From NCBI GenBank assembly GCA_017472545.1, contig JAFUPZ010000060.1, positions 1-43,840 on the forward strand: a DNA stretch of 43,840 nt, written 5' to 3'. Positions within the stretch are counted from its first letter, which is position 1; the number at the start of each line of letters is the position of its first letter. Shown one piece after another: positions 14,831 to 43,480 of this stretch. The translations under genes were made by a program, and so were the position numbers. Under the pieces are notes generated by a model. That model did not search any database and was not told the origin of the DNA. It was given only the letters and a program-made list of their open reading frames with translations. Source of the stretch: a bacterium. Its GTDB lineage: Bacteria; Cyanobacteriota; Vampirovibrionia; Gastranaerophilales; Gastranaerophilaceae.

Positions 14831-15475
14831 ATGTCAGAAATTATAATTTCACCATCAATATTATCTGCAGATTTTGCAAACTTAGAAAGAGATATTAAAG
14901 CTGTTGAAAAAGCTGGCGCAGATTGGATTCACGTAGATGTTATGGATGGGCATTTCGTACCAAATATTACTATCGGTTCTCCTGTAGTAAAATCACTTCG
15001 CGCGGTTACAGATTTACCTTTAGATGTTCATTTGATGATTGAAAACCCTGAAAAATATATCGAACCATTTGCAAAAGCAGGAGCAGATATAATCACTTTC
15101 CACTACGAAGCTGTAGCTACTGAAAACATCCAATCAATTATTGATAATATTAAATCATTTGGCATAAAAGCAGGAATGTCAATTAAACCAAAGACTTCTG
15201 CTGATGAAATTTTGAAATATTTACCACAACTTGATATGCTACTTGTTATGACAGTTGAACCTGGTTTTGGTGGTCAAAAATTCATGCAGGATTGCGCTGA
15301 AAAAATCCCAACAATCAAAGCTAACGCTCCAGACAATCTAATTATACAAGTAGACGGCGGAATTAATGCTGAAACTGCAAAAATTTGCACAAATCTTGGC
15401 GCAACTTCACTTGTTGCAGGAAATTATATCTATAAAGCTGAAGACATTGAACAAGCAATAAAATCTCTACGCTAA
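14831..15475 (+). CDS. rpe: ribulose-phosphate 3-epimerase
   Basis: 214 aa with SILSADFANL, HVDVMDGHFVPN, VEPGFGGQKF and VDGGIN motifs. Confidence 0.9.
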   Translation: MSEIIISPSILSADFANLERDIKAVEKAGADWIHVDVMDGHFVPNITIGSPVVKSLRAVTDLPLDVHLMIENPEKYIEPFAKAGADIITFHYEAVATENIQSIIDNIKSFGIKAGMSIKPKTSADEILKYLPQLDMLLVMTVEPGFGGQKFMQDCAEKIPTIKANAPDNLIIQVDGGINAETAKICTNLGATSLVAGNYIYKAEDIEQAIKSLR

Positions 15476-16582
15476 TTGGTCATTACCAACATTTTCACCT
15501 TTTCTAATTTTGGCTTTTAGAATTTTATCCAAATCAGCACTTGCAACTTTATCCGTTTCTGTTGCATTAGATTTTGCTGGGTCATTTTCAGCTTCGTCTG
15601 AATTGTTTTTCTTATCCGTATCAACTGCAATTCCTGCAACACCAGTAACATTTTCAAGCTCACCTTTATAACTTTGAGCTTTTGAAATATTATCTGAATT
15701 TGTTGATAATGAAGCTTCTTGAACAGCAGATGCAGTTTCCGAAGCATTAACCGCACGATGTCCTGATGCCTCTGCTCTAACACCGAATACTAAAGCTCTA
15801 AGATTTAGCCATCCACGTCCTCTTATTGATGCTAATAAATCTTGCCCAACACCAATAGTTTCTGTACCAAAATCTAAAGTATTCAAAATAACACCACTTT
15901 GAGCATTTATAGTTGATTCATAAACATTTAAGTCACCCTCAACTCCTGCAATATTAGCTTGTCCATCAGCTCCAAGTCTTTGTAGTTGAGAGTTCAATCT
16001 ATTAATTTTACCGAGCGCACCAGCATCATTTTCGCCATCATTCACACTCTTAACTTCATTTTTTAACTCTGTTTGAGTAGCTTCTGCTTTTGAAAGAAGT
16101 TCTTTCATATAATTATCAAGAGCTTGAATTTCATTATTTGATAGCTTTGCGGTTGTAGACATAAGAGCAGCTGATTCTAACGCTTCACCTCGAACTTGTC
16201 TACTATCACCTATGAAAACTCTAGCAACATCTATTAAAGTTGCACCAGATGCTTCCATATTTTCACGTTTTTCTTGTGCTGCTGTTTTAGGTTCTTCTTC
16301 AACTTCTGTACCTTCATCAGGTTCTGTTGATGCATCTGTAGAACTTGTTGTTGTAGCCGCAGATTCTGCTGATGGGGCAACAGTAGTTTGAGAATTTGCA
16401 GATTCAAACGTTGTTTCATCAGAATCACCAGAATTGACATCATTTAAAAATTCCTGAGCCCATTGTAAATATTGGCTCGGAACTTCGACACCTTGTTGTT
16501 CATATTTAATTATTTCTGGGGCGGTCAATTTACGCCATTCGATTTGTCTTGGTGAAATTGCCTCTATTCTTGAAACGTCCAT
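15467..16582 (-). CDS. hypothetical acidic protein with a low-complexity S/T/E-rich linker and a coiled-coil segment; sigma-28-type promoter upstream
   Basis: 371-aa ORF with an AAGGGTG RBS. I see no signal peptide or TM segment and recognise no family. The 3' end overlaps the rpe 3' end by 9 nt (convergent). Confidence 0.6.
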   Translation of the reverse strand: MDVSRIEAISPRQIEWRKLTAPEIIKYEQQGVEVPSQYLQWAQEFLNDVNSGDSDETTFESANSQTTVAPSAESAATTTSSTDASTEPDEGTEVEEEPKTAAQEKRENMEASGATLIDVARVFIGDSRQVRGEALESAALMSTTAKLSNNEIQALDNYMKELLSKAEATQTELKNEVKSVNDGENDAGALGKINRLNSQLQRLGADGQANIAGVEGDLNVYESTINAQSGVILNTLDFGTETIGVGQDLLASIRGRGWLNLRALVFGVRAEASGHRAVNASETASAVQEASLSTNSDNISKAQSYKGELENVTGVAGIAVDTDKKNNSDEAENDPAKSNATETDKVASADLDKILKAKIRKGENVGNDQLA

Positions 16583-16610: not shown

Positions 16611-16637
16611 ATGACGGCAAAAATTTTAAAAACTTTA
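16611..16637 (-). promoter_or_regulatory. sigma-28 (FliA/SigD)-type promoter
   Basis: The minus strand reads TAAAGTTT (16637..16630), an 11-nt spacer, then GCCGTCAT (16618..16611). It lies 28 nt upstream of the ATG at 16582. The established consensus is TAAAGTTT-N11-GCCGATAA. Confidence 0.6.
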
Positions 16638-16736
16638 ATTTCTAGCAACAAAAATAACAAAATGTAAACTCCCTCATCTGATTAAGGGATAACTTTTTGA
16701 AAAATTATGAATATAATAGGTTAAAAGAGGTAGCTT

Positions 16737-21127: not shown

Positions 21128-24100
21128 ATGGCTCAAGAATTAGAACAAATTGTTGAATTGTTAAGGGAGATGACTAGAGCTAACAACAATAATACCGAGA
21201 GTTTTGACAAATTGTTAGCTAGTATAAATAGTAAGTTAGAGTTGATGGATAAAAATGCCGCAACTGCTGATTTGATTAGAGCATACTTAGGCGAATTGGC
21301 AAAAGCCACTGACGATAAGTATTCTAAAACAATGGACAGACTTACTGACATTGAAAAAGCGTTAAAAGCAATCTTTAACGACCAAGAAGAGCATGTTCAT
21401 AACAAAGATTTTAATGAACTTTTTGAAGTTTTTACAACTAACTTAAATGGATTCTACTCAGAAGCAAGACAACAAAAGGCATTGATTGCAGGTATTGAAA
21501 CTCGTCTTGCTGACATTTCTAATGACAAATCCGATAAAGAAGACATCCTTCGCACAATCACATTACTAAGAAACGATTTTGAAAACCTAAACCATGGTTA
21601 CAAAAGTACTATTGACAGCGTAAATTCTGACCTTAAATCAATCCTTACAAACCTAATCAAATTAGACCAATCTGCTGTCAACACTCAAATAAAAGAACAA
21701 GTAGAAATTATGTACAAAGCGGTAAGCGATATTGTTAACTACTTGAATTCTATCGACAAAAGAGATGCGAACTTAGAACAATTACTAGCAAATGTAGCTA
21801 CGAATGAAAATCTAAAAATTACACAATCTGTAATTGATTCAATCATTAAGAAATCAGAAGAAATTTCTGAAAAAATTGTCACTCTTGCAAACAAAACAGA
21901 TATTGAAGAACTTCAAGCTGCCGCTAGTTATATGAACAAAAAACTAGATGAAGCAGCTACTAAAGAACATTTTACAGAATTAGCTAACAAAGCTGAATCT
22001 CTAACAACTTCAACTGATGAAATTAAACAAACTCTAGCTAAAGTATCAAAAGATATTGATACCATTCCTGATACTTCTGACCTTGAAAATTCCCTACAAA
22101 ATCTATTCAAAAAGTTAGAAAGTATTTCAAAAGATATAGAAAAAGCTAGTAGTAAAAAAAGTATAACTACGCTTGATACAAAGCTAACAAACCTTACAGA
22201 AGACCTTTTCACAATCAAAAACATTGTTGGAGATCTTAATGAAGTTGTAACCCTAAAAGTTTTAACATCTATCAACGACCTATCTTTTGAAAAAGAATGC
22301 TACGAGATAAAAGATCACGTATCAAAAATGTTAGCAATTCTTCCTCAAAAAGAAGATATAGATAGACTTTTAGAAAATAACGAACTTTCTAAACAAGCTG
22401 TTGAAGATTTAATCAAGAAAACGGATATTCTTGCAGATAGACTTGATACTCTGCCAACACATGATGATATGGCAGCTCTTAACAGCAATCAACTTAGCTT
22501 GGTCGAAAACCTTCAAGCTGTAGCAAACAAAGATGACATAGAAAATCTTTCCGCAAAAGCTGATGAAATCGAAGAAATGATAGACAAACTTAATTTTGAT
22601 AATGAGTTTGGAAACATCTATGACAAAACTGCGTCAATTGAGAATTGGTTAATTTCTTCAAAAGTAAAAGAAAACACTGAAGAAATCGCTTCAAAAATTG
22701 GCGATAAAGCTGAACAAAAAGACATTTTAGCAATTTTACAAACCGTAGAAAATATCGTTAACGAAATTGACGAATTGTCTAAAAATGTTGATGTAAAAAA
22801 AGTCAACAGAACAGTTGCTGAAGTTTACCAAATGATTGAAGAGTTGAAAAACGACTTCATTAACACAACTGAAATGCATAACGATTCAGTAATCGTCAAC
22901 CTTTCTGAGTTACAAAAATCTATTCAAAACATCGTAACTGGAGATGAATTTGATGATTTTGTAGAAGACCTAAAAGCCTTTGTTGTGAATACCGTAAGCG
23001 ATACTGAAGATTACAAACAAAAATTCTCAGATATTAAAGAACTTCAAGAAAAGATCTTGGAAAAACTAGACGAAATCAACACATCTTCAATCGAAGAAGC
23101 TATAAATCGCTCTGCATTAAACATTGAAGAAAAACTTGATTCTATCTCAGATTATTTAACAAATGTCAACAAAACCAACGCTGAAGACATTAAAAATTCA
23201 ATAGCAGAAATCAAAGAAATTCTTGAAAATAAAAAATCTAACTTCAAAGATTTTGAAAAAGAAAATCTTGAAACTGTTCGAACTATTGAAAATTACTTAA
23301 AAGAAATAAAAGTGATTCTTGATACATCTGACAAGGACCTAAGCGAAGATGTTAAAGCGAAACTTGAAGAAATTGAAGCAAGCCTAAAATCTTATCAAAA
23401 TTCAAACGAAAATGCGATTACTGCTGTAATCGAAAAATTAAGTGAATACCAAGCTAAAATAGATATTCAAGAACCTGCACCTCAAGTTGATTTAACTCCA
23501 ACAATGTCTGAAATTGCAGATATTAAAGAAAAAATTGTTGCCTTGGGTGAATCATTCAACTCTATCAATTTTGAAAACAAAGAAGAGGCTGATAACTCAG
23601 CGTTTGTATCTGAAATTCTTAACGAACTTGGTGCAAATTTAGAAGAACTTGCAGGAAATATTGATGAAAAACTTCAACACGGATTTGCTTATAATGCAGA
23701 ACTTGTTGAAGAAAAAACTGCAGTTGTAATTGATTTTATCAACGAATTAAGAGAAAACACCTCTAATGATTCAGAATTATATGAAAAATTATCAAGTGCA
23801 AACACTCAACTTGATGATTACAAACAAGAACTTGAGTTTATCACAACAGATATTACAAACTCTTTAGGCGCTCAAACAGAACACTTGTTACAAGAACTTG
23901 AGCCAATTAAAGAAATGCTTTCTCAATTATCACAAAATCCTGATATTGAAAAAGAAAATGTAAAAGAAAACTTATCGGAACTTCATGATTCAGTCTTAGA
24001 TGACCTTGCAGAATGCACTAAGTATTCAAAAAGTACATACGATAAGCTAGAAGAATCCTATGAAAAAATCACACGAGATTTAACCGATACTGAAAACAAC

Positions 24101-25870
24101 TTAAAAGATTTCATCTTGAGTGACATAGATTCAGTTATCATAAAAATCGACAACCTAAGAGAAGACCTTGAAGAAACTCTTAACAGAATAGCTCCTCCAG
24201 AAGCTGATCATATGGCTGAATTCAAGAAATTTGTAGACCAAATTTCTAAATTCAAAGGGGATCCACAAGAAGTAATAAAAGAAGCAACCAAAGAAATTGC
24301 AACTTCCGTATGTGAAACACTAAACCAACATCACGAAGATTTAAAATCTATGCTTGCAGTTTCTATAAATAATGAAGAAATTATTGCAGCAATTGAAGAA
24401 CTTAAAGCTTGCTTCTACGCAAAACTTGGCGATTTGAGCGCAATCAAACACGCTAATGAGGATGCAGATTTTGAAGGACTAGATGATTTCGGTTCAAACC
24501 AATACGAAAAAGCTTTTGAAGCTGATAAAAATGCAGAAATCATTGAAGAATTAAAGGGCGACTTCGAAAAATTCTCAACATTAGTAAAAGAATTATCTGA
24601 AGAAAATACTGAAATTAATGAAGTATTAGAAGCTATTAAAGGAAAAATGGAAACTATAACTATTGCAAAAGTTTCAGATATTGCAGAAGATATAGACTCC
24701 CTTGATGCTTCAGATTCAGACTACGATGCTGATGCAAAATCTGATAAAGACGAAGAAGTTATTGTTGGGGTTGGCAATTTCAATTTCGTAAAAGCTCTTG
24801 AGCTAATGAAATTAGATGTCAAAACTTTACAAGAAAAAGTTGCAAAAATCTTCCCTAAAGAAGAACAAAAAGAAACCTCTACAAAACTTGCATCTATACC
24901 AACAATTCAAGTTAGTGGAAGTAATAATGAAGAAAACACAAAACTTCTAACTGACTTAAACGAAAAAGTAGAACTTCTAACCCAAACAATCAATCCAAAA
25001 GAGTGGTTAGAAGAAATTAAAACATACATTGCTGGAGATGAAATTCACTCAATACTTAATGAAATCAATAGCAAAATTGATATTTTAACACTAAGCGACA
25101 ATTCTGACATTTTGGTAGAAATCAGAAATGTTGTTGCTCAATTAAATGCAGAAGAAGCTTCAGTAACATCAGATCCTGAAATCCAATCAATGCTTGCTCT
25201 TATCAACGACAAAATTGATATTCTTGCAACAAATGATGATTACGAATTAATTGAAGAAGTTAGAGATGCAATCGATAGAATTGATATTGGTGAAGAAACT
25301 GGCAAACTTCTGAATGTAATCAGTGACAAAATTGATATTATTGCAGCTAGTGATAATACTGAAGACATCTTAGACATCAAAGAATCTTTAGAAAGCCTTG
25401 AAGATTTCAAAACTTCATTAACTACAATTGAAGACGTTAAGACTTCATTAAGTTCTATCGAAGATGTTAAAACTTCTATTTCTTCAATTGAAGAACAATT
25501 TGAGTCAGTAAAACATCTATCTGAATCTGACGCAAAAATAACTTCAATGTTAGAAAATTTAAGCAGCAAAATTGATAACATTTCTATAGGTGGCGATTCT
25601 CAAAAAGAATTTGAAGATGTTAAAGCCTTAATTATGGCGCAAACAGATTTTATCGATAATTTAGAAAAAAATGGTAAAACTGAAGCTGTAAAAAAATGCT
25701 TAGAAAAATTAACTCTTGAAGTTAACAACCTAGTTACAGGGGATAATACTAAACAAATTCAAAAATCTATAAAAGAGATGAAAGAATCAATTATGGCGGC
25801 AATTGTAACCATATTTGAACAAGTTTCATTTATAGAAGAATCAGAAGATATTAAAGATTTTGTTGAATAA
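21128..25870 (+). CDS. giant acidic coiled-coil-rich protein (first 1580 codons; the frame continues after a single TAA)
   Basis: A 4.7-kb ORF, Glu/Asp/Lys/Ile/Leu-rich with a heptad-like pattern throughout. No TM segment or enzymatic motif recognised. Carries internal repeat modules near the 3' end. Confidence 0.7.
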   Translation: MAQELEQIVELLREMTRANNNNTESFDKLLASINSKLELMDKNAATADLIRAYLGELAKATDDKYSKTMDRLTDIEKALKAIFNDQEEHVHNKDFNELFEVFTTNLNGFYSEARQQKALIAGIETRLADISNDKSDKEDILRTITLLRNDFENLNHGYKSTIDSVNSDLKSILTNLIKLDQSAVNTQIKEQVEIMYKAVSDIVNYLNSIDKRDANLEQLLANVATNENLKITQSVIDSIIKKSEEISEKIVTLANKTDIEELQAAASYMNKKLDEAATKEHFTELANKAESLTTSTDEIKQTLAKVSKDIDTIPDTSDLENSLQNLFKKLESISKDIEKASSKKSITTLDTKLTNLTEDLFTIKNIVGDLNEVVTLKVLTSINDLSFEKECYEIKDHVSKMLAILPQKEDIDRLLENNELSKQAVEDLIKKTDILADRLDTLPTHDDMAALNSNQLSLVENLQAVANKDDIENLSAKADEIEEMIDKLNFDNEFGNIYDKTASIENWLISSKVKENTEEIASKIGDKAEQKDILAILQTVENIVNEIDELSKNVDVKKVNRTVAEVYQMIEELKNDFINTTEMHNDSVIVNLSELQKSIQNIVTGDEFDDFVEDLKAFVVNTVSDTEDYKQKFSDIKELQEKILEKLDEINTSSIEEAINRSALNIEEKLDSISDYLTNVNKTNAEDIKNSIAEIKEILENKKSNFKDFEKENLETVRTIENYLKEIKVILDTSDKDLSEDVKAKLEEIEASLKSYQNSNENAITAVIEKLSEYQAKIDIQEPAPQVDLTPTMSEIADIKEKIVALGESFNSINFENKEEADNSAFVSEILNELGANLEELAGNIDEKLQHGFAYNAELVEEKTAVVIDFINELRENTSNDSELYEKLSSANTQLDDYKQELEFITTDITNSLGAQTEHLLQELEPIKEMLSQLSQNPDIEKENVKENLSELHDSVLDDLAECTKYSKSTYDKLEESYEKITRDLTDTENNLKDFILSDIDSVIIKIDNLREDLEETLNRIAPPEADHMAEFKKFVDQISKFKGDPQEVIKEATKEIATSVCETLNQHHEDLKSMLAVSINNEEIIAAIEELKACFYAKLGDLSAIKHANEDADFEGLDDFGSNQYEKAFEADKNAEIIEELKGDFEKFSTLVKELSEENTEINEVLEAIKGKMETITIAKVSDIAEDIDSLDASDSDYDADAKSDKDEEVIVGVGNFNFVKALELMKLDVKTLQEKVAKIFPKEEQKETSTKLASIPTIQVSGSNNEENTKLLTDLNEKVELLTQTINPKEWLEEIKTYIAGDEIHSILNEINSKIDILTLSDNSDILVEIRNVVAQLNAEEASVTSDPEIQSMLALINDKIDILATNDDYELIEEVRDAIDRIDIGEETGKLLNVISDKIDIIAASDNTEDILDIKESLESLEDFKTSLTTIEDVKTSLSSIEDVKTSISSIEEQFESVKHLSESDAKITSMLENLSSKIDNISIGGDSQKEFEDVKALIMAQTDFIDNLEKNGKTEAVKKCLEKLTLEVNNLVTGDNTKQIQKSIKEMKESIMAAIVTIFEQVSFIEESEDIKDFVE
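25400..25489 (+). repeat. 3 x 30-bp in-frame tandem repeat inside the coiled-coil gene
   Basis: Encodes EDFKTSLTTI / EDVKTSLSSI / EDVKTSISSI. Confidence 0.7.
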
Positions 25871-30074: not shown

Positions 30075-30108
30075 AAAAAAGACCTGATAAATTCAGGTCT
30101 TTTTTATT
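30075..30108 (+). terminator. Rho-independent terminator of gltX
   Basis: aaaaAAGACCTGAtaaatTCAGGTCTTttttatttg: a 9-bp stem followed by a T-run. Confidence 0.7.
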
Positions 30109-30141
30109 TGTAAACAAATGTAACAATAACCTCTAAAATCC

Positions 30142-30168
30142 TAAAGTTTAAAAAATTTATGCCGACAT
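30142..30168 (+). promoter_or_regulatory. sigma-28 (FliA/SigD)-type promoter
   Basis: TAAAGTTT (30142..30149), an 11-nt spacer, then GCCGACAT (30161..30168). It lies 45 nt upstream of ATG 30214. Confidence 0.6.
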
Positions 30169-30213: not shown

Positions 30214-30420
30214 ATGGAATTTACATTATTTGAACACAAAGAGAATGAGTTAAACGAAATCAACTCTTACATGATTCTTTCAAGAAGCGAAGCAGTTGCA
30301 GAAGCTGATTTGCAAAATGTTATCCAAATCATTGATGAATCAGGTATTGAAGTTAATTGTACTTACAACAAATTTGTTGAAATATTCGATCAGGAGGGCT
30401 TGGCAGGCTTTATTATTTAA
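30214..30420 (+). CDS. hypothetical small acidic protein (68 aa)
   Basis: AAGAGG RBS. The gene is bracketed by its own sigma-28-type promoter and its own terminator. No recognised family. Confidence 0.5.
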   Translation: MEFTLFEHKENELNEINSYMILSRSEAVAEADLQNVIQIIDESGIEVNCTYNKFVEIFDQEGLAGFII

Positions 30421-30441
30421 AACTAAATAGCTTTAAGTATG

Positions 30442-30473
30442 AAAAAAGACGAGGTTTATCCCTCGTCTTTTTG
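30442..30473 (+). terminator. Rho-independent terminator
   Basis: aaaAAGACGAGGtttatcCCTCGTCTTtttg. Confidence 0.7.
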
Positions 30474-30492
30474 TTTATGTTAATATAAGTTT

Positions 30493-31428
30493 ATGGCAGA
30501 TTTTAAACATTACACAGTTATGAAAAACGAAGCCGTTGATGCTCTAGAATGCAAAGACGGACTTATTTATGTCGATTGCACATTAGGCGGTGGAGGACAC
30601 AGCGAACTCATCCTAAAAAGAATTTCACCTAATGGGAAATTGATTTCTTTTGACATAGACCAAGACGCGATTGATGCAGCTTCTGAAAGATTGAAAGAAT
30701 ATAAAAATCTTACTATCGTCAAAAGTTCATACACAAACATCAAACAAGTTTTAAAAGATTTAGGAATCGAAAAAATCACAGGCGGTATTCTTTTTGATTT
30801 AGGCGCATCATACCATCAATTAACAAAACAGGAACGCGGATTTTCATTTTCTAAAGAAGCACCTTTGGATATGAGATTCAATATGGATTCAGATTTTTCA
30901 GCATACGATGTTGTAAATACATACAGCGAAAATGATTTGGTGAGAATTTTTTCTGAATACGGAGAAGAAAGATTTTCTAAAAGAATTGCAAAAGCTATAG
31001 TTGAAAAAAGACGTATAAAACCAATTAAAACAACAACCGAATTAGCAGAAATTATTGTCAATTCAACACCAAAGATAAAATCATCTATACACCCTGCTAC
31101 AAGGGTGTTTCAGGCTATCAGAATTGAAGTGAATTCTGAGTTACAAAATGTTAAAAACACATTGAACGATGTATTGGAATTATTAGAATTTGGTGCTATA
31201 ATTAGTGTAATAAGTTTTCATTCGCTTGAAGACAGAGTAGTCAAACAGGTTTTTAAATACCACTCAACAAAATGCCACTGCGATAAGACCCAAATGATTT
31301 GTAATTGTCCGCCTCCGGCACTTGAGTTGATTAATAAAAAACCAATTATGGCAACAGAAGAAGAATTGAATGAAAACCCACCTTCTAGAAGTGCAAAACT
31401 AAGAATCGCGCGCTACATAAGAAGGTAA
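30493..31428 (+). CDS. rsmH: 16S rRNA (cytosine1402-N4)-methyltransferase
   Basis: 311 aa with HYTVMKNEAV, DCTLGGGGHS, DLGASYHQL, SFHSLEDRVVK and PSRSAKLR motifs. Confidence 0.9.
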   Translation: MADFKHYTVMKNEAVDALECKDGLIYVDCTLGGGGHSELILKRISPNGKLISFDIDQDAIDAASERLKEYKNLTIVKSSYTNIKQVLKDLGIEKITGGILFDLGASYHQLTKQERGFSFSKEAPLDMRFNMDSDFSAYDVVNTYSENDLVRIFSEYGEERFSKRIAKAIVEKRRIKPIKTTTELAEIIVNSTPKIKSSIHPATRVFQAIRIEVNSELQNVKNTLNDVLELLEFGAIISVISFHSLEDRVVKQVFKYHSTKCHCDKTQMICNCPPPALELINKKPIMATEEELNENPPSRSAKLRIARYIRR

Positions 31429-31465
31429 ACCGAGTAGTAGAGTTTATTGGCAGGTAGTTTAGGGA

Positions 31466-31942
31466 ATGAATTTAAATTCATCAAGAGTAAGAATAGAAGA
31501 GCGTGAACTACTTTACAAACAAAGCAGTTATACAACCACTCCAATAAAAGAAAATGCTGTTATTGAAGGTTCTTTCTATCAAGAAAAACCAATGACAGTT
31601 AGAGAAATGGTAACTCGCAGAATCAACAAATCTCTATGCTTCTGTCTTGTTATTGCAATTTGCATTACTTTTGTTAGCTACTACATCGCTATGAACTATG
31701 AGGCAAAACTTAACAGTCTTGATAACGAGATTGTTAGACTTAATGCTGAAAACCAAGATTTACAAGCTGAATTAGACAGATACAAATCGTTTAATAACGT
31801 AGATAATAAAATTGGCGCTTTTAATCTATTACAAAAAGCAGATAAAGTTATTGAAGTGACAGCTCTTAATGCTGCAAATAAAGAAGTTGAAGATACAGCA
31901 AGAACTGCTTCTAATAACTTTGATTGGGCTATAGGTTATTAA
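31466..31942 (+). CDS. FtsL/DivIC-like septation protein (single TM plus coiled coil)
   Basis: 158 aa with a TM helix (LCFCLVIAICITFVSYYIAMNY) followed by a leucine-zipper-like stretch (LNSLDNEIVRLNAENQDLQAELDRY). It occupies the position immediately after rsmH, as ftsL does in dcw clusters. Confidence 0.5.
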   Translation: MNLNSSRVRIEERELLYKQSSYTTTPIKENAVIEGSFYQEKPMTVREMVTRRINKSLCFCLVIAICITFVSYYIAMNYEAKLNSLDNEIVRLNAENQDLQAELDRYKSFNNVDNKIGAFNLLQKADKVIEVTALNAANKEVEDTARTASNNFDWAIGY

Positions 31943-32047
31943 TTCTTTTAAATTGCCAAACATACTCCTCTAACGAAAGTTAGAGATATTTTGCATTAGT
32001 ATTGTTAAGAAATATCTCATACTTTAGTATGAATTTTATAAAATAAT

Positions 32048-32074
32048 TAAAGTTTTGAAAATTTATGCCGTCAT
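32048..32074 (+). promoter_or_regulatory. sigma-28 (FliA/SigD)-type promoter
   Basis: TAAAGTTT (32048..32055), an 11-nt spacer, then GCCGTCAT (32067..32074). It lies 35 nt upstream of ATG 32110. Confidence 0.6.
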
Positions 32075-32109: not shown

Positions 32110-33348
32110 ATGGATAAAGAAGAGAAAAAACAAGTAGGTGTCTCACTTTTCGGACAATCTGAATTTTTGGTAGGAGATGATCCGTTAGAGGAAATGTTTG
32201 CCCTAAACTTAGGTGATTTTATATCTGAAACATTGATTTCAGAAGATTTAGCTAAGAAAATTAGTGTAAAAGCAAACAAAAAAGAACGTCTTCAAAATCA
32301 ATTAAAGGAATTGACAGACATTTACTCTTCAAAAAATACATTATGCGTCTTAAACTTTACTTCAGGTGAAGAACAGGCTATCTATACATCTATCGCAAAA
32401 TCTATTGTACAAATGCTAGAGGTAGAAGATTGCAAAATTCACCTAATAAAAGATGATAAAATTGTTCCAGTTGGACTATCTTCAGATAGCGAAAGCTGGA
32501 ACGACATAACCATCAATGACTTGCTATATCAAGAAGTAATCGAAAAAGATCCATACACATACATTCCAATGAGAAGTTCTACAATGCCTGTTGGTATGAT
32601 TGAAATCAAAAGTGAAGAAAAACTTGAAGAAGATTTCTCAGAACTTGTAATGAATATTGCAAACTTACTTGGAACAACAATAACATTACAAAACGAAGTT
32701 GAAAATACTAACAAGTTAATTGAAACTCCTGAAACTTCAGAAGTTGAATTAAAACAAGCAAGAGCAGAACTAACAGCATTAATCGGTGACTTATGTGATT
32801 ATCAACAAAACTTTGTAGAAGCATTAGCAAATGCGGTTGACAGAAAGGGTCAATACACAGTTTCACATTCTAGAAATACTGCAAAACTTGCTCGAAGCAT
32901 CTGTAAACAATTAGGCCTAAACGAAAAAACAACCGACCTAATCTACTATGCTGGCTTATTGCAAAACATTGGTAAAATCACTCTTCCTGAAAAGATTTTC
33001 GCAACAAACGGAAAACTTTCTCCTGAAGAATTACAAAAAATCAAAAACCACACAAATGTTGGGGTTAACTTACTTATGAATATTAACTTCTTATCAGAAG
33101 TTGTACCATACATTACATATCAAACAGAAAGAGTTGATGGTTCAGGTGGACCAGAAGGATTGAAAGGTCAGTCAATTCCATTCGGTTCAAGAATTATCGC
33201 TGTAGCTGATGCCTTTTGTGCAATGACTTCTGATAGACCATACAGAAAAGCTATGGAAAATGCAAAAGCATTAGAAATTATCTCATCTGAAATCGATACA
33301 AAATGGGATAAAGATGTAGTTAACGCATTACACCAAGTAATCAAATAA
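32110..33348 (+). CDS. HD-GYP-domain protein with degenerate catalytic motifs and an N-terminal sensor-like region
   Basis: 412 aa. The C-terminal half aligns by eye with HD-GYP domains (SHSRNTAKLA.., GKITLPEKI, ERVDGSGGPEGLKGQSIPFGSRIIAVADAFCAMTSDRPYRKAM). However, HD is QN (32962..32967), HHE is QTE, and GYP is GGP. Confidence 0.8.
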   Translation: MDKEEKKQVGVSLFGQSEFLVGDDPLEEMFALNLGDFISETLISEDLAKKISVKANKKERLQNQLKELTDIYSSKNTLCVLNFTSGEEQAIYTSIAKSIVQMLEVEDCKIHLIKDDKIVPVGLSSDSESWNDITINDLLYQEVIEKDPYTYIPMRSSTMPVGMIEIKSEEKLEEDFSELVMNIANLLGTTITLQNEVENTNKLIETPETSEVELKQARAELTALIGDLCDYQQNFVEALANAVDRKGQYTVSHSRNTAKLARSICKQLGLNEKTTDLIYYAGLLQNIGKITLPEKIFATNGKLSPEELQKIKNHTNVGVNLLMNINFLSEVVPYITYQTERVDGSGGPEGLKGQSIPFGSRIIAVADAFCAMTSDRPYRKAMENAKALEIISSEIDTKWDKDVVNALHQVIK

Positions 33349-33369: not shown

Positions 33370-33403
33370 AGATCCGGCTGAGCATCTGCTCAGCCGGTTT
33401 AGA
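33370..33403. terminator. bidirectional terminator between convergent genes
   Basis: aaaagatCCGGCTGAGCatctGCTCAGCCGGttt: a 10-bp GC-rich perfect stem. Confidence 0.7.
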
Positions 33404-38007: not shown

Positions 38008-38162
38008 TGAAAATTGCCTATATGTTAAGTTTTGTAAATATAAATTTCAAAAAAAGGCAATTCTGAGAAATAAAAAAACTTTATTATTATATAAAGGAAT
38101 ATCTAGGATTTCATTTTACAGGAAACAGGATGATTATTACAAATCAATAGGGAGGACTTCGC

Positions 38163-43323: not shown

Positions 43324-43480
43324 AAAATTAATCCTTAAGAATTATTTTTATTAAGAAATATAACACATAAGCAAAAAATAATTACAAATTCTTAACATTA
43401 TTTTACAATAGCAAAAGCCTTATTTTATAAGCATTTGCAACTTATTAAAAATTTTTATCTAATTCTAAAGGATTAATTTT
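43324..43480. repeat. AT-rich 157-bp cassette bounded by 21-bp inverted repeats (MITE-like or invertible-segment-like)
   Basis: IR-L is aaaattaatccttaagaatta (43324..43344). IR-R is taattctaaaggattaatttt (43460..43480), whose reverse complement matches IR-L at 20/21 positions. Confidence 0.5.

Follow-up and report, generated by a model that had tools for sequence, protein, structure and literature searches.

Three intergenic copies of the bipartite sequence TAAAGTTT-N11-GCCG(A/T)CAT, found in a 43,840-nt stretch of DNA from the family Gastranaerophilaceae (the whole of which is referred to here as the window), look, judged from their sequence and its conservation, like functional promoters of the sigma-28 (FliA/SigD/WhiG) class, which is a known kind of element. 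A sigma factor of the FliA/SigD/WhiG family probably reads all three; the identity of that factor, the point at which transcription begins and any tie to motility are what we infer from the features described below. The Melainabacteria, to which the host belongs, are an uncultured, non-photosynthetic sister group of the cyanobacteria that is common in animal guts, and to our knowledge nothing has been reported on their transcription signals or promoters.

The window is ordinary chromosomal DNA of 33% G+C and makes up almost the whole of its source contig, which is 44,472 nt long. Its early genes encode a SNF2-type helicase, two GT8 glycosyltransferases, a ribonucleotide reductase, an oligopeptide ABC transporter and the pyrH-frr-cdsA-rnc-rpe group, and these are followed by the first of the three target genes, which is divergent from cdd. 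Further along are genes for a four-subunit 2-oxoacid:ferredoxin oxidoreductase and a 1580-aa coiled-coil protein, and then gltX, after which come the 68-aa second target, rsmH, an ftsL-like gene, the HD-GYP gene that is the third target, maf, genes for pilin-like proteins and a NarL-type response regulator. No flagellar gene was found beyond the edge of the window, where the contig ends about 0.7-3 kb further on, and scans of the window for Rfam families and tRNAs gave no matches. The proteins of the window were matched in metagenome assemblies only, and those homologues that carry a name are labelled Candidatus Gastranaerophilaceae, Gastranaerophilales or Melainabacteria. The giant 1580-aa protein (positions 21128-25870, plus strand) has no Pfam domain and shows only a faint SMC-like coiled-coil similarity; in syntenic relatives (L003, L004, L006, L092, L093, L216 and L219) its length varies between 1580 and 2098 aa.

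Table 1. Promoters, target genes and neighbouring elements in the window.
Feature	Position	Strand	Remarks
Site 1, sigma-28-type promoter TAAAGTTT-TTAAAATTTTT-GCCGTCAT	16611..16637	-	Exact match; 28 nt before ATG at 16582
Site 2, sigma-28-type promoter TAAAGTTT-AAAAAATTTAT-GCCGACAT	30142..30168	+	Exact match; 45 nt before ATG at 30214
Site 3, sigma-28-type promoter TAAAGTTT-TGAAAATTTAT-GCCGTCAT	32048..32074	+	Exact match; 35 nt before ATG at 32110
Target 1, 371-aa acidic protein, pI 4.45	15467..16582	-	ORF after site 1
Target 2, 68-aa acidic protein, pI 4.05	30214..30420	+	Just upstream of rsmH-ftsL
Target 3, 412-aa protein, C-terminal degenerate HD-GYP domain	32110..33348	+	PF13487 HD_5, E=1e-42
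Direct repeat TGTAAA-CAAA-TGTAAC	30109..30124	+	Ends 17 nt before TAAAG box of site 2; candidate activator site
Intrinsic-terminator-like hairpin and T-run	30443..30472	+	After 68-aa gene
Palindrome CATACT-TT-AGTATG (CATACTTTAGTATG)	32018..32031		16 nt upstream of TAAAG box of site 3; candidate regulator site
Bidirectional terminator-like hairpin	33374..33397		Closes HD-GYP unit

A sequence-only reading of this DNA had noticed the three copies and read them as sigma-28 promoters, and the positions it gave proved exact: a search of the whole window returned precisely these three matches (Table 1), and none of 100 dinucleotide-preserving shuffles returned any. The looser pattern TAAA-N15-GCCGWYAW recovered the same three sites and no others (0.08 expected). 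When up to three mismatches were allowed, two extra poor matches appeared in the window, both within genes (1.09 expected). With a position weight matrix built from 15 sites of the lineage, the three sites scored 27.3-27.5 bits and the next best position in the window scored 14.1 bits; this gap, together with the relaxed searches, indicates that the window holds no tail of weak sites. On its own, TAAAGTTT is not enriched (13 copies in the window vs 8.5 expected). Each site lies between genes and faces the open reading frame that follows it, again as had been described, and the start codons that follow at 28, 45 and 35 nt are preceded by the ribosome-binding-site-like strings AAGGG, AAGAGG and AAGGA for targets 1, 2 and 3 respectively.

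The -35 box TAAAGTTT is exact at all three sites, the distance from it to GCCG is 11 nt in each case, and GCCG itself is exact throughout. The -10 box continues as CGA at site 2 and as CGT at sites 1 and 3, and ends in CAT where the consensus has TAA or TAT; in the canonical sigma-28 -10 element CGA is the part held to matter most. The enterobacterial FliA consensus is TAAAGTTT-N11-GCCGATAA and that of Bacillus subtilis SigD is TAAA-N15-GCCGATAT, and boxes and geometry agree with the textbook sigma-28 consensus at 13-14 of 16 positions. The spacers of the three copies are also alike, with the form NNAAAATTT(A/T)T, such that 24 of the 27 positions are common to all copies. Recent spread of the three copies by copying was considered and rejected, as their similarity ends at the edges of the 28-nt motif and the closest orthologue of site 1 already has the same spacer type; since the similarity stops at those edges, the motif is not a dispersed repeat.

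We found that the motif is kept at the corresponding positions in related species. Orthologues of site 1 (L219, L003, L004, L006, L216 and L217) have the form TAAAGT(TT)-N11/12-(G/T/A)CCG(T/A) and lie 25-29 nt before the start codon, with a weakened GTCG in place of the CCG box in L217; here the target-1 proteins are 67, 53, 48, 42, 38 and 33% identical to that of the window and the intergenic region has largely diverged. For sites 2 and 3 the comparison was with six loci (L088, L090, L092, L093, L106 and L187) in which the rsmH and HD-GYP genes are 72-87% identical in DNA to those of the window. The orthologues of site 2 in these loci read TAAAGT..-N12-(G/A)CCGA(A/T/G)A(T/A), and their -10 boxes (CCGATAT and CCGATAA occur among them) include the canonical -10 cores of Bacillus and of enterobacteria, ACCGATAT and ACCGATAA. 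Those of site 3 read TAAAGTT(T/A)-N11-GCCG(T/A)(C/A)(A/T)(T/A), 32-36 nt before the start.

Across 27 sites in eight promoter families of the lineage, TAAAG is present in 27/27 and CCG in 26-27/27, counts that are somewhat circular because both strings were demanded by the regular expressions with which the sites were in part found; no such circularity affects the finding that every orthologous position has a match. The base following CCG is A in 14 of the 27 and T in 13, and the spacer is 11 nt long in 16 and 12 nt long in 11, its sequence diverging along with the flanks. The retention of the motif in related species makes the three promoter-like sequences look real, and on these comparisons their arrangement is ancestral in the family Gastranaerophilaceae.

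At site 2 the spacer has been wholly replaced between the window and relatives that are 86% identical to it, being AAAAAATTTAT (11 nt, window 30150-30160) in the former and TTATCTAACTAT (12 nt, positions 4156-4145 of L088, minus strand) in the latter, while the flanks are conserved. The version in the window resembles the spacer of site 3. This swap could reflect selection toward one optimal form, or local conversion.

The conservation data bear on two explanations in which the sites would not be promoters. The first is that three matches arose by coincidence in AT-rich intergenic DNA, and it could appeal to the lack of enrichment of TAAAGTTT by itself and to viral contigs, where the 16-base pattern was matched 69 times, which is about the chance level by our own estimate. 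However, no shuffle reproduced the motif, and all three sites are intergenic, correctly oriented and conserved at orthologous positions across species. The conservation data already refute chance, and we give it a negligible probability. The second makes the bipartite motif the operator of some DNA-binding regulator, as the unusual similarity of the spacers in the window (24 of 27 positions) might suggest. Neither box, however, repeats the other in direct or inverted orientation, and an operator is made unlikely by the variation of the spacer between orthologues in both sequence and length (11 or 12 nt). Moreover, the sites stand 25-45 nt before start codons and directly after upstream terminators, so that reading them as operators would leave the genes with no other promoter. 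We therefore consider this explanation very improbable.

The same motif is found before flagellar genes in other bacteria. A scan of 185,579 species with TAAAGTTT-N3-AAWTT-N3-GCCGWCAT gave 15 matches in total, six of them in Gastranaerophilales, Melainabacteria or unnamed low-G+C gut or rumen metagenome-assembled genomes (MAGs), five before an L,D-transpeptidase gene in Pantoea or Enterobacter, two at 29-36 nt before flgK in proteobacterial MAGs, and two that appear to be chance matches. A scan of metagenomes with TAAAGTTT-N6-TT-N3-GCCGWCAT found at least 121 sites in at least 120 loci. Among the matches listed, 70 of 121 fall inside open frames of at least 150 codons and 51 fall outside; 25 of those 51 sit 29-37 nt before flgK, and others of the matches listed precede genes for flagellin (L099), cheW (L144) and flhB-flhA (L195), the identities of all four types (flgK, flagellin, cheW and flhB) being confirmed with Pfam. 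The CGT variant of the -10 box is likewise present in flgK promoters of Proteobacteria (25 metagenome loci among the matches listed). As the exact variant of the window, including GCCGTCAT, precedes flagellar genes, it is a natural form of flagellar promoter in other bacteria. The assignment of the three sites to the sigma-28 class, made at first from the boxes and their spacing, is supported by the fit to the consensus, by conservation at orthologous positions and by the occurrence of the same pattern before flagellar genes elsewhere.

Two further groups of matches were noted. In ten Pantoea or Enterobacter loci (L077, L078, L081, L082, L091, L122, L131, L132, L184 and L189) the motif TAAAGTTTACAAATTTCTGGCCGTCAT lies upstream of a gene for a YkuD-type L,D-transpeptidase, with a gap of 90-150 nt, and this enzyme is a possible non-flagellar target of FliA. 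Eight low-G+C metagenome contigs (L125, L138, L153, L172, L181, L191, L203 and L208) contain the identical string TAAAGTTTACAAATTTTTCGCCGTCAT within a long open frame; they were rejected as promoters, being homologous coding copies, and they show that raw pattern matches need a coding filter.

Terminators made of a hairpin and a T-run stand after gltX, after the 68-aa and ftsL-like genes and after the HD-GYP gene, that of gltX (at about 30083-30105) being just upstream of site 2, and no convincing competing sigma-70-type promoter was found at sites 2 and 3. Each of the three targets looks like a single-gene unit, a reading to which the terminator-like hairpin after the 68-aa gene points directly for target 2. 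The targets themselves had been described as an acidic protein of 371 aa with no recognisable family, a 68-aa mini-gene and a degenerate HD-GYP protein, and it can be seen from Table 1 and the searches below that these descriptions hold.

Target 1 gave no family in searches of Pfam and NCBIfam. Its conserved N-terminal region of about 55 aa is joined by a disordered acidic linker to a long helical bundle (residues 100-313); an AlphaFold2 model of the protein is a confident long helical bundle (pLDDT 79.5), and a Foldseek search of the PDB with this model returned nothing with E<1e-3, only generic helical bundles (best E=7.6e-3). There are 116 full-length homologues, all from contigs of Gastranaerophilaceae type where these are named, and the synteny is fixed, the gene always lying between cdd and rpe. 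A family profile search found 201 clusters in 1.84 billion representatives, and the whole family is unannotated. On these data target 1 is a lineage-specific, fast-evolving protein. The bundle also occurs inside larger proteins of 1400-2800 aa (P0292, P0334, P0339, P0344 and others), in which Pfam recognises no domain, and the 1580-aa protein of the window itself, considered as a member of the family, was rejected as unrelated. In the divergent intergenic region between cdd and target 1, about 45 nt upstream of site 1, is a block TATCCCTTAAT (16681..16691, minus strand) that six of the seven genomes compared (the window, L003, L004, L006, L217 and L219) share without change and that has diverged in L216. 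In the window this block pairs with GAGGGA as a hairpin; the GAGGGA partner is not conserved.

Target 2, which like target 1 matched no Pfam or NCBIfam family, has seven orthologues with 28 invariant residues, a size range of 68-73 aa in the family and the C-terminal signature NVIQxIDExG...KFVEIFDxEGLxGFI, and by these features it is a real conserved gene. A match of one orthologue to Sigma70_r1_1 was weak (E=0.016, below the cut-off) and was set aside, and a single-sequence AlphaFold2 model was unusable (pLDDT 52). The gene stands with rsmH and the ftsL-like gene at 30214-31942 of the window and is not MraZ-like; mraZ is the usual occupant of the place upstream of rsmH, at the head of the division and cell-wall cluster.

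Upstream of site 2 is a direct repeat (Table 1) of the form TGT(A/T)AA-N4-TGT(A/T)A(A/C), with a 10-nt period, of which the window contains three copies vs 0.24 expected; the others are at 38023-38038 (plus strand) and 43392-43407 (minus strand). It lies at the same 17-nt distance from the promoter in all six site-2 orthologues, and also at non-orthologous promoters bearing the motif, namely L083 (3731), L086a (L086 5464, minus strand) and L218a (L218 501). The copy at 38023, which is conserved in L092 (15888), has no sigma-28-like motif downstream. The repeat looks like the binding site of a regulator, and we read it as a candidate activator site.

A potential explanation that would give this upstream sequence another role is that the three sites are housekeeping sigma-70-type promoters, in which the TTGTAA or TTGTTA hexamer 17-18 nt upstream would be the -35 element, TAAAGT the -10 element (TAnnnT) and GCCG(A/T) a conserved element of the early transcript. 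It is true that 16-18 nt separate TAAAG from the end of a TTGT(A/T)A hexamer at site 1, in most site-1 orthologues, in all site-2 orthologues and in L083, L086a/b and L218a/b; at site 1, L086b and L218b the hexamer stands singly. TAAAGT is also compatible with TAnnnT. However, the AAG at positions 3-5 and the TT that follows show little or no variation, which is not the behaviour of a sigma-70 -10 element, and the CCG(A/T) block, kept at a constant 11-12 nt, would have no role. The full bipartite motif also occurs without TTGTAA in the site-3 family and in L080 and L084, the repeat at 38023 has no suitably spaced TAnnnT after it, and the same 27-mer is found before flgK in Proteobacteria. We regard housekeeping promoters as quite unlikely, and retain the assignment of the sites to the sigma-28 class.

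Target 3 retains the fold family of the HD-GYP phosphodiesterases and has lost their signature of an HD dyad, HHE and GYP. An alignment with 5z7c, a cGAMP phosphodiesterase, shows QN in place of HD, YQTE in place of HHE and GGP in place of GYP, the motif LLHDIGK becoming LLQNIGK and HHEKLDGTGYP becoming YQTERVDGSGGP. Because these signature residues are replaced, target 3 is probably not a phosphodiesterase, and we take it to be probably a sensor-type, non-catalytic HD-GYP protein. The best 120 database matches listed are all 80-95% identical to it, from which it follows that target 3 is much more conserved than target 1. A palindrome upstream of site 3 (Table 1) is present as a single copy in the window and is conserved in L088, L090, L187 and L093, and occurs twice in L092; given this conservation it is a candidate regulator site, probably an operator for the HD-GYP gene. 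The gene also has a conserved 5' leader, AGAAGGCATGT...AAAGGAAAAATTATG.

In other Gastranaerophilales the motif precedes genes for proteins of 191, 83, 1022 and 667 aa, as well as a unit resembling a small RNA, and the four proteins, like targets 1 and 2, matched no family in Pfam or NCBIfam. Both motifs of the 1022/667-aa pair are kept in an orthologue that is 50% identical, and the 1022-aa target, from L086, has four homologues only. The RNA-like unit is in a MAG of Gastranaerophilales from rabbit gut (L080, 3353-3470, plus strand), where the motif is followed by about 85 nt without an open reading frame that contain a small hairpin, a C-rich single-stranded run CCUCCCUCCCC (anti-Shine-Dalgarno-like) and a terminator. 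This combination makes it a candidate for a sigma-28-driven small RNA; it had no match in Rfam and a folding z-score of only -0.78.

No recognisable flagellar or chemotaxis gene lies downstream of the motif in any of the eight promoter families of the lineage, as scanned with strict variants of the motif. A tblastn search of about 250 kb of fetched lineage DNA, with Escherichia coli FliA and B. subtilis SigD as queries, found no sigma gene, and neither flgM nor any flagellar gene of the lineage was seen in these loci. PMC3787301 describes gut Melainabacteria that carry flagellar genes, MEL.A1 being without those for the filament, cap, junction and L/P ring, and PMC4040986 and PMC4451040 report complete flagellar sets in only three of nine Gastranaerophilales genomes and at least one loss of flagella within the order. 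The main text of these three articles makes no mention of sigma factors. As the order carries flagellar genes according to PMC3787301 and PMC4040986, a FliA-type sigma factor is plausible there.

These considerations are relevant to a further alternative, in which the sites are real promoters read by another alternative sigma factor (ECF or group 3) that has a sigma-28-like specificity and no tie to FliA or flagella. The CGT/CGA core and the gap of about 16 nt between AAAG and CG(T/A) do resemble an ECF-type geometry, and such a factor would accord with the lack of a flagellar target among the motif-bearing promoter families of the lineage and with the many Gastranaerophilales that have no functional flagella (PMC4040986). 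On the other hand, the 8-mer TAAAGTTT and GCCG match FliA promoters exactly and do not match the AAC-type -35 boxes of ECF factors, the orthologous -10 boxes drift to CCGATAT and CCGATAA, and in other phyla the pattern goes with flagellar genes. We judge a sigma factor of this other kind to be unlikely, though less so than housekeeping promoters, and favour a factor of the sigma-28 family.

RNA polymerase carrying such a sigma-28-family factor would then read the three sites with TAAAGTTT as the -35 element and GCCG(A/T)CAT as an extended -10 element, and transcription would start about 7-8 nt beyond the latter. Each promoter would drive one single-gene unit, with a terminator closing the two units that have a visible hairpin, and the predicted products would be an acidic helical-bundle protein peculiar to the lineage, the 68-aa acidic protein and the degenerate HD-GYP protein. 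The upstream elements differ, with TATCCCTTAAT at site 1, the TGTAAA repeat at site 2 and the palindrome at site 3, which suggests that each promoter has its own regulator. More tentatively, we raise the possibility that Gastranaerophilaceae of the gut, many of which no longer have a working flagellum, have kept a sigma-28-type factor and re-used it for a conserved non-flagellar programme. The core targets of this programme may be the degenerate HD-GYP sensor, the tiny acidic protein encoded next to the cell-division genes rsmH-ftsL and the fast-evolving helical-bundle proteins, and each promoter may be further gated by an upstream regulator site of its own (the TGTAAA repeat or the palindrome). 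The sequence-only reading had raised a possible motility or c-di-GMP circuit, and the one thread that leads to c-di-GMP is the degenerate, probably non-catalytic HD-GYP domain.

The element is a textbook type of promoter, and its value is in the annotation of the Melainabacteria, with no new principle involved. With a clean, conserved class of sigma-28-type promoters, a regulon could be defined purely by computation, three or more core genes now called 'hypothetical' could be assigned to one programme, and it could be tested whether the flagellar sigma factor persisted in lineages where the flagellum was lost.

Among the known systems near to the three sites are the class-3 promoters of enterobacterial FliA, with which they share the -35 octamer, the 11-nt spacer, the GCCG start of the -10 box and a position a few tens of nt from the gene; they differ in the second half of the -10 box, which is (A/T)CAT rather than ATAA, in their non-flagellar targets and in being found in a melainabacterium. 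The geometry is also that of B. subtilis SigD promoters, with ACCGATAT in the site-2 orthologues L092 and L093 and an A/T-rich upstream region in common. The SigD regulon comprises flagellin, motility and chemotaxis genes and autolysins, whereas no gene of these kinds is among the targets here. In E. coli, pdeH (yhjH) and ycgR are FliA-dependent c-di-GMP genes, and target 3 resembles them in that a sigma-28-type promoter precedes a member of a domain family related to c-di-GMP (HD-GYP); however, PdeH is an active EAL phosphodiesterase, whereas in target 3 the HD and GYP signature residues are gone and catalysis is improbable. Sigma-28 of Chlamydia (late genes such as hctB) and WhiG of Streptomyces (sporulation) are members of the sigma-28 family that serve non-flagellar programmes, and the present case is like them in having FliA-type promoters on non-flagellar genes, perhaps in a lineage whose flagella have been reduced or lost. 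Those regulons were defined experimentally, whereas the promoters described here are known from their sequence; if the re-use that we tentatively propose is correct, it would resemble these two systems, in a sister lineage of the cyanobacteria.
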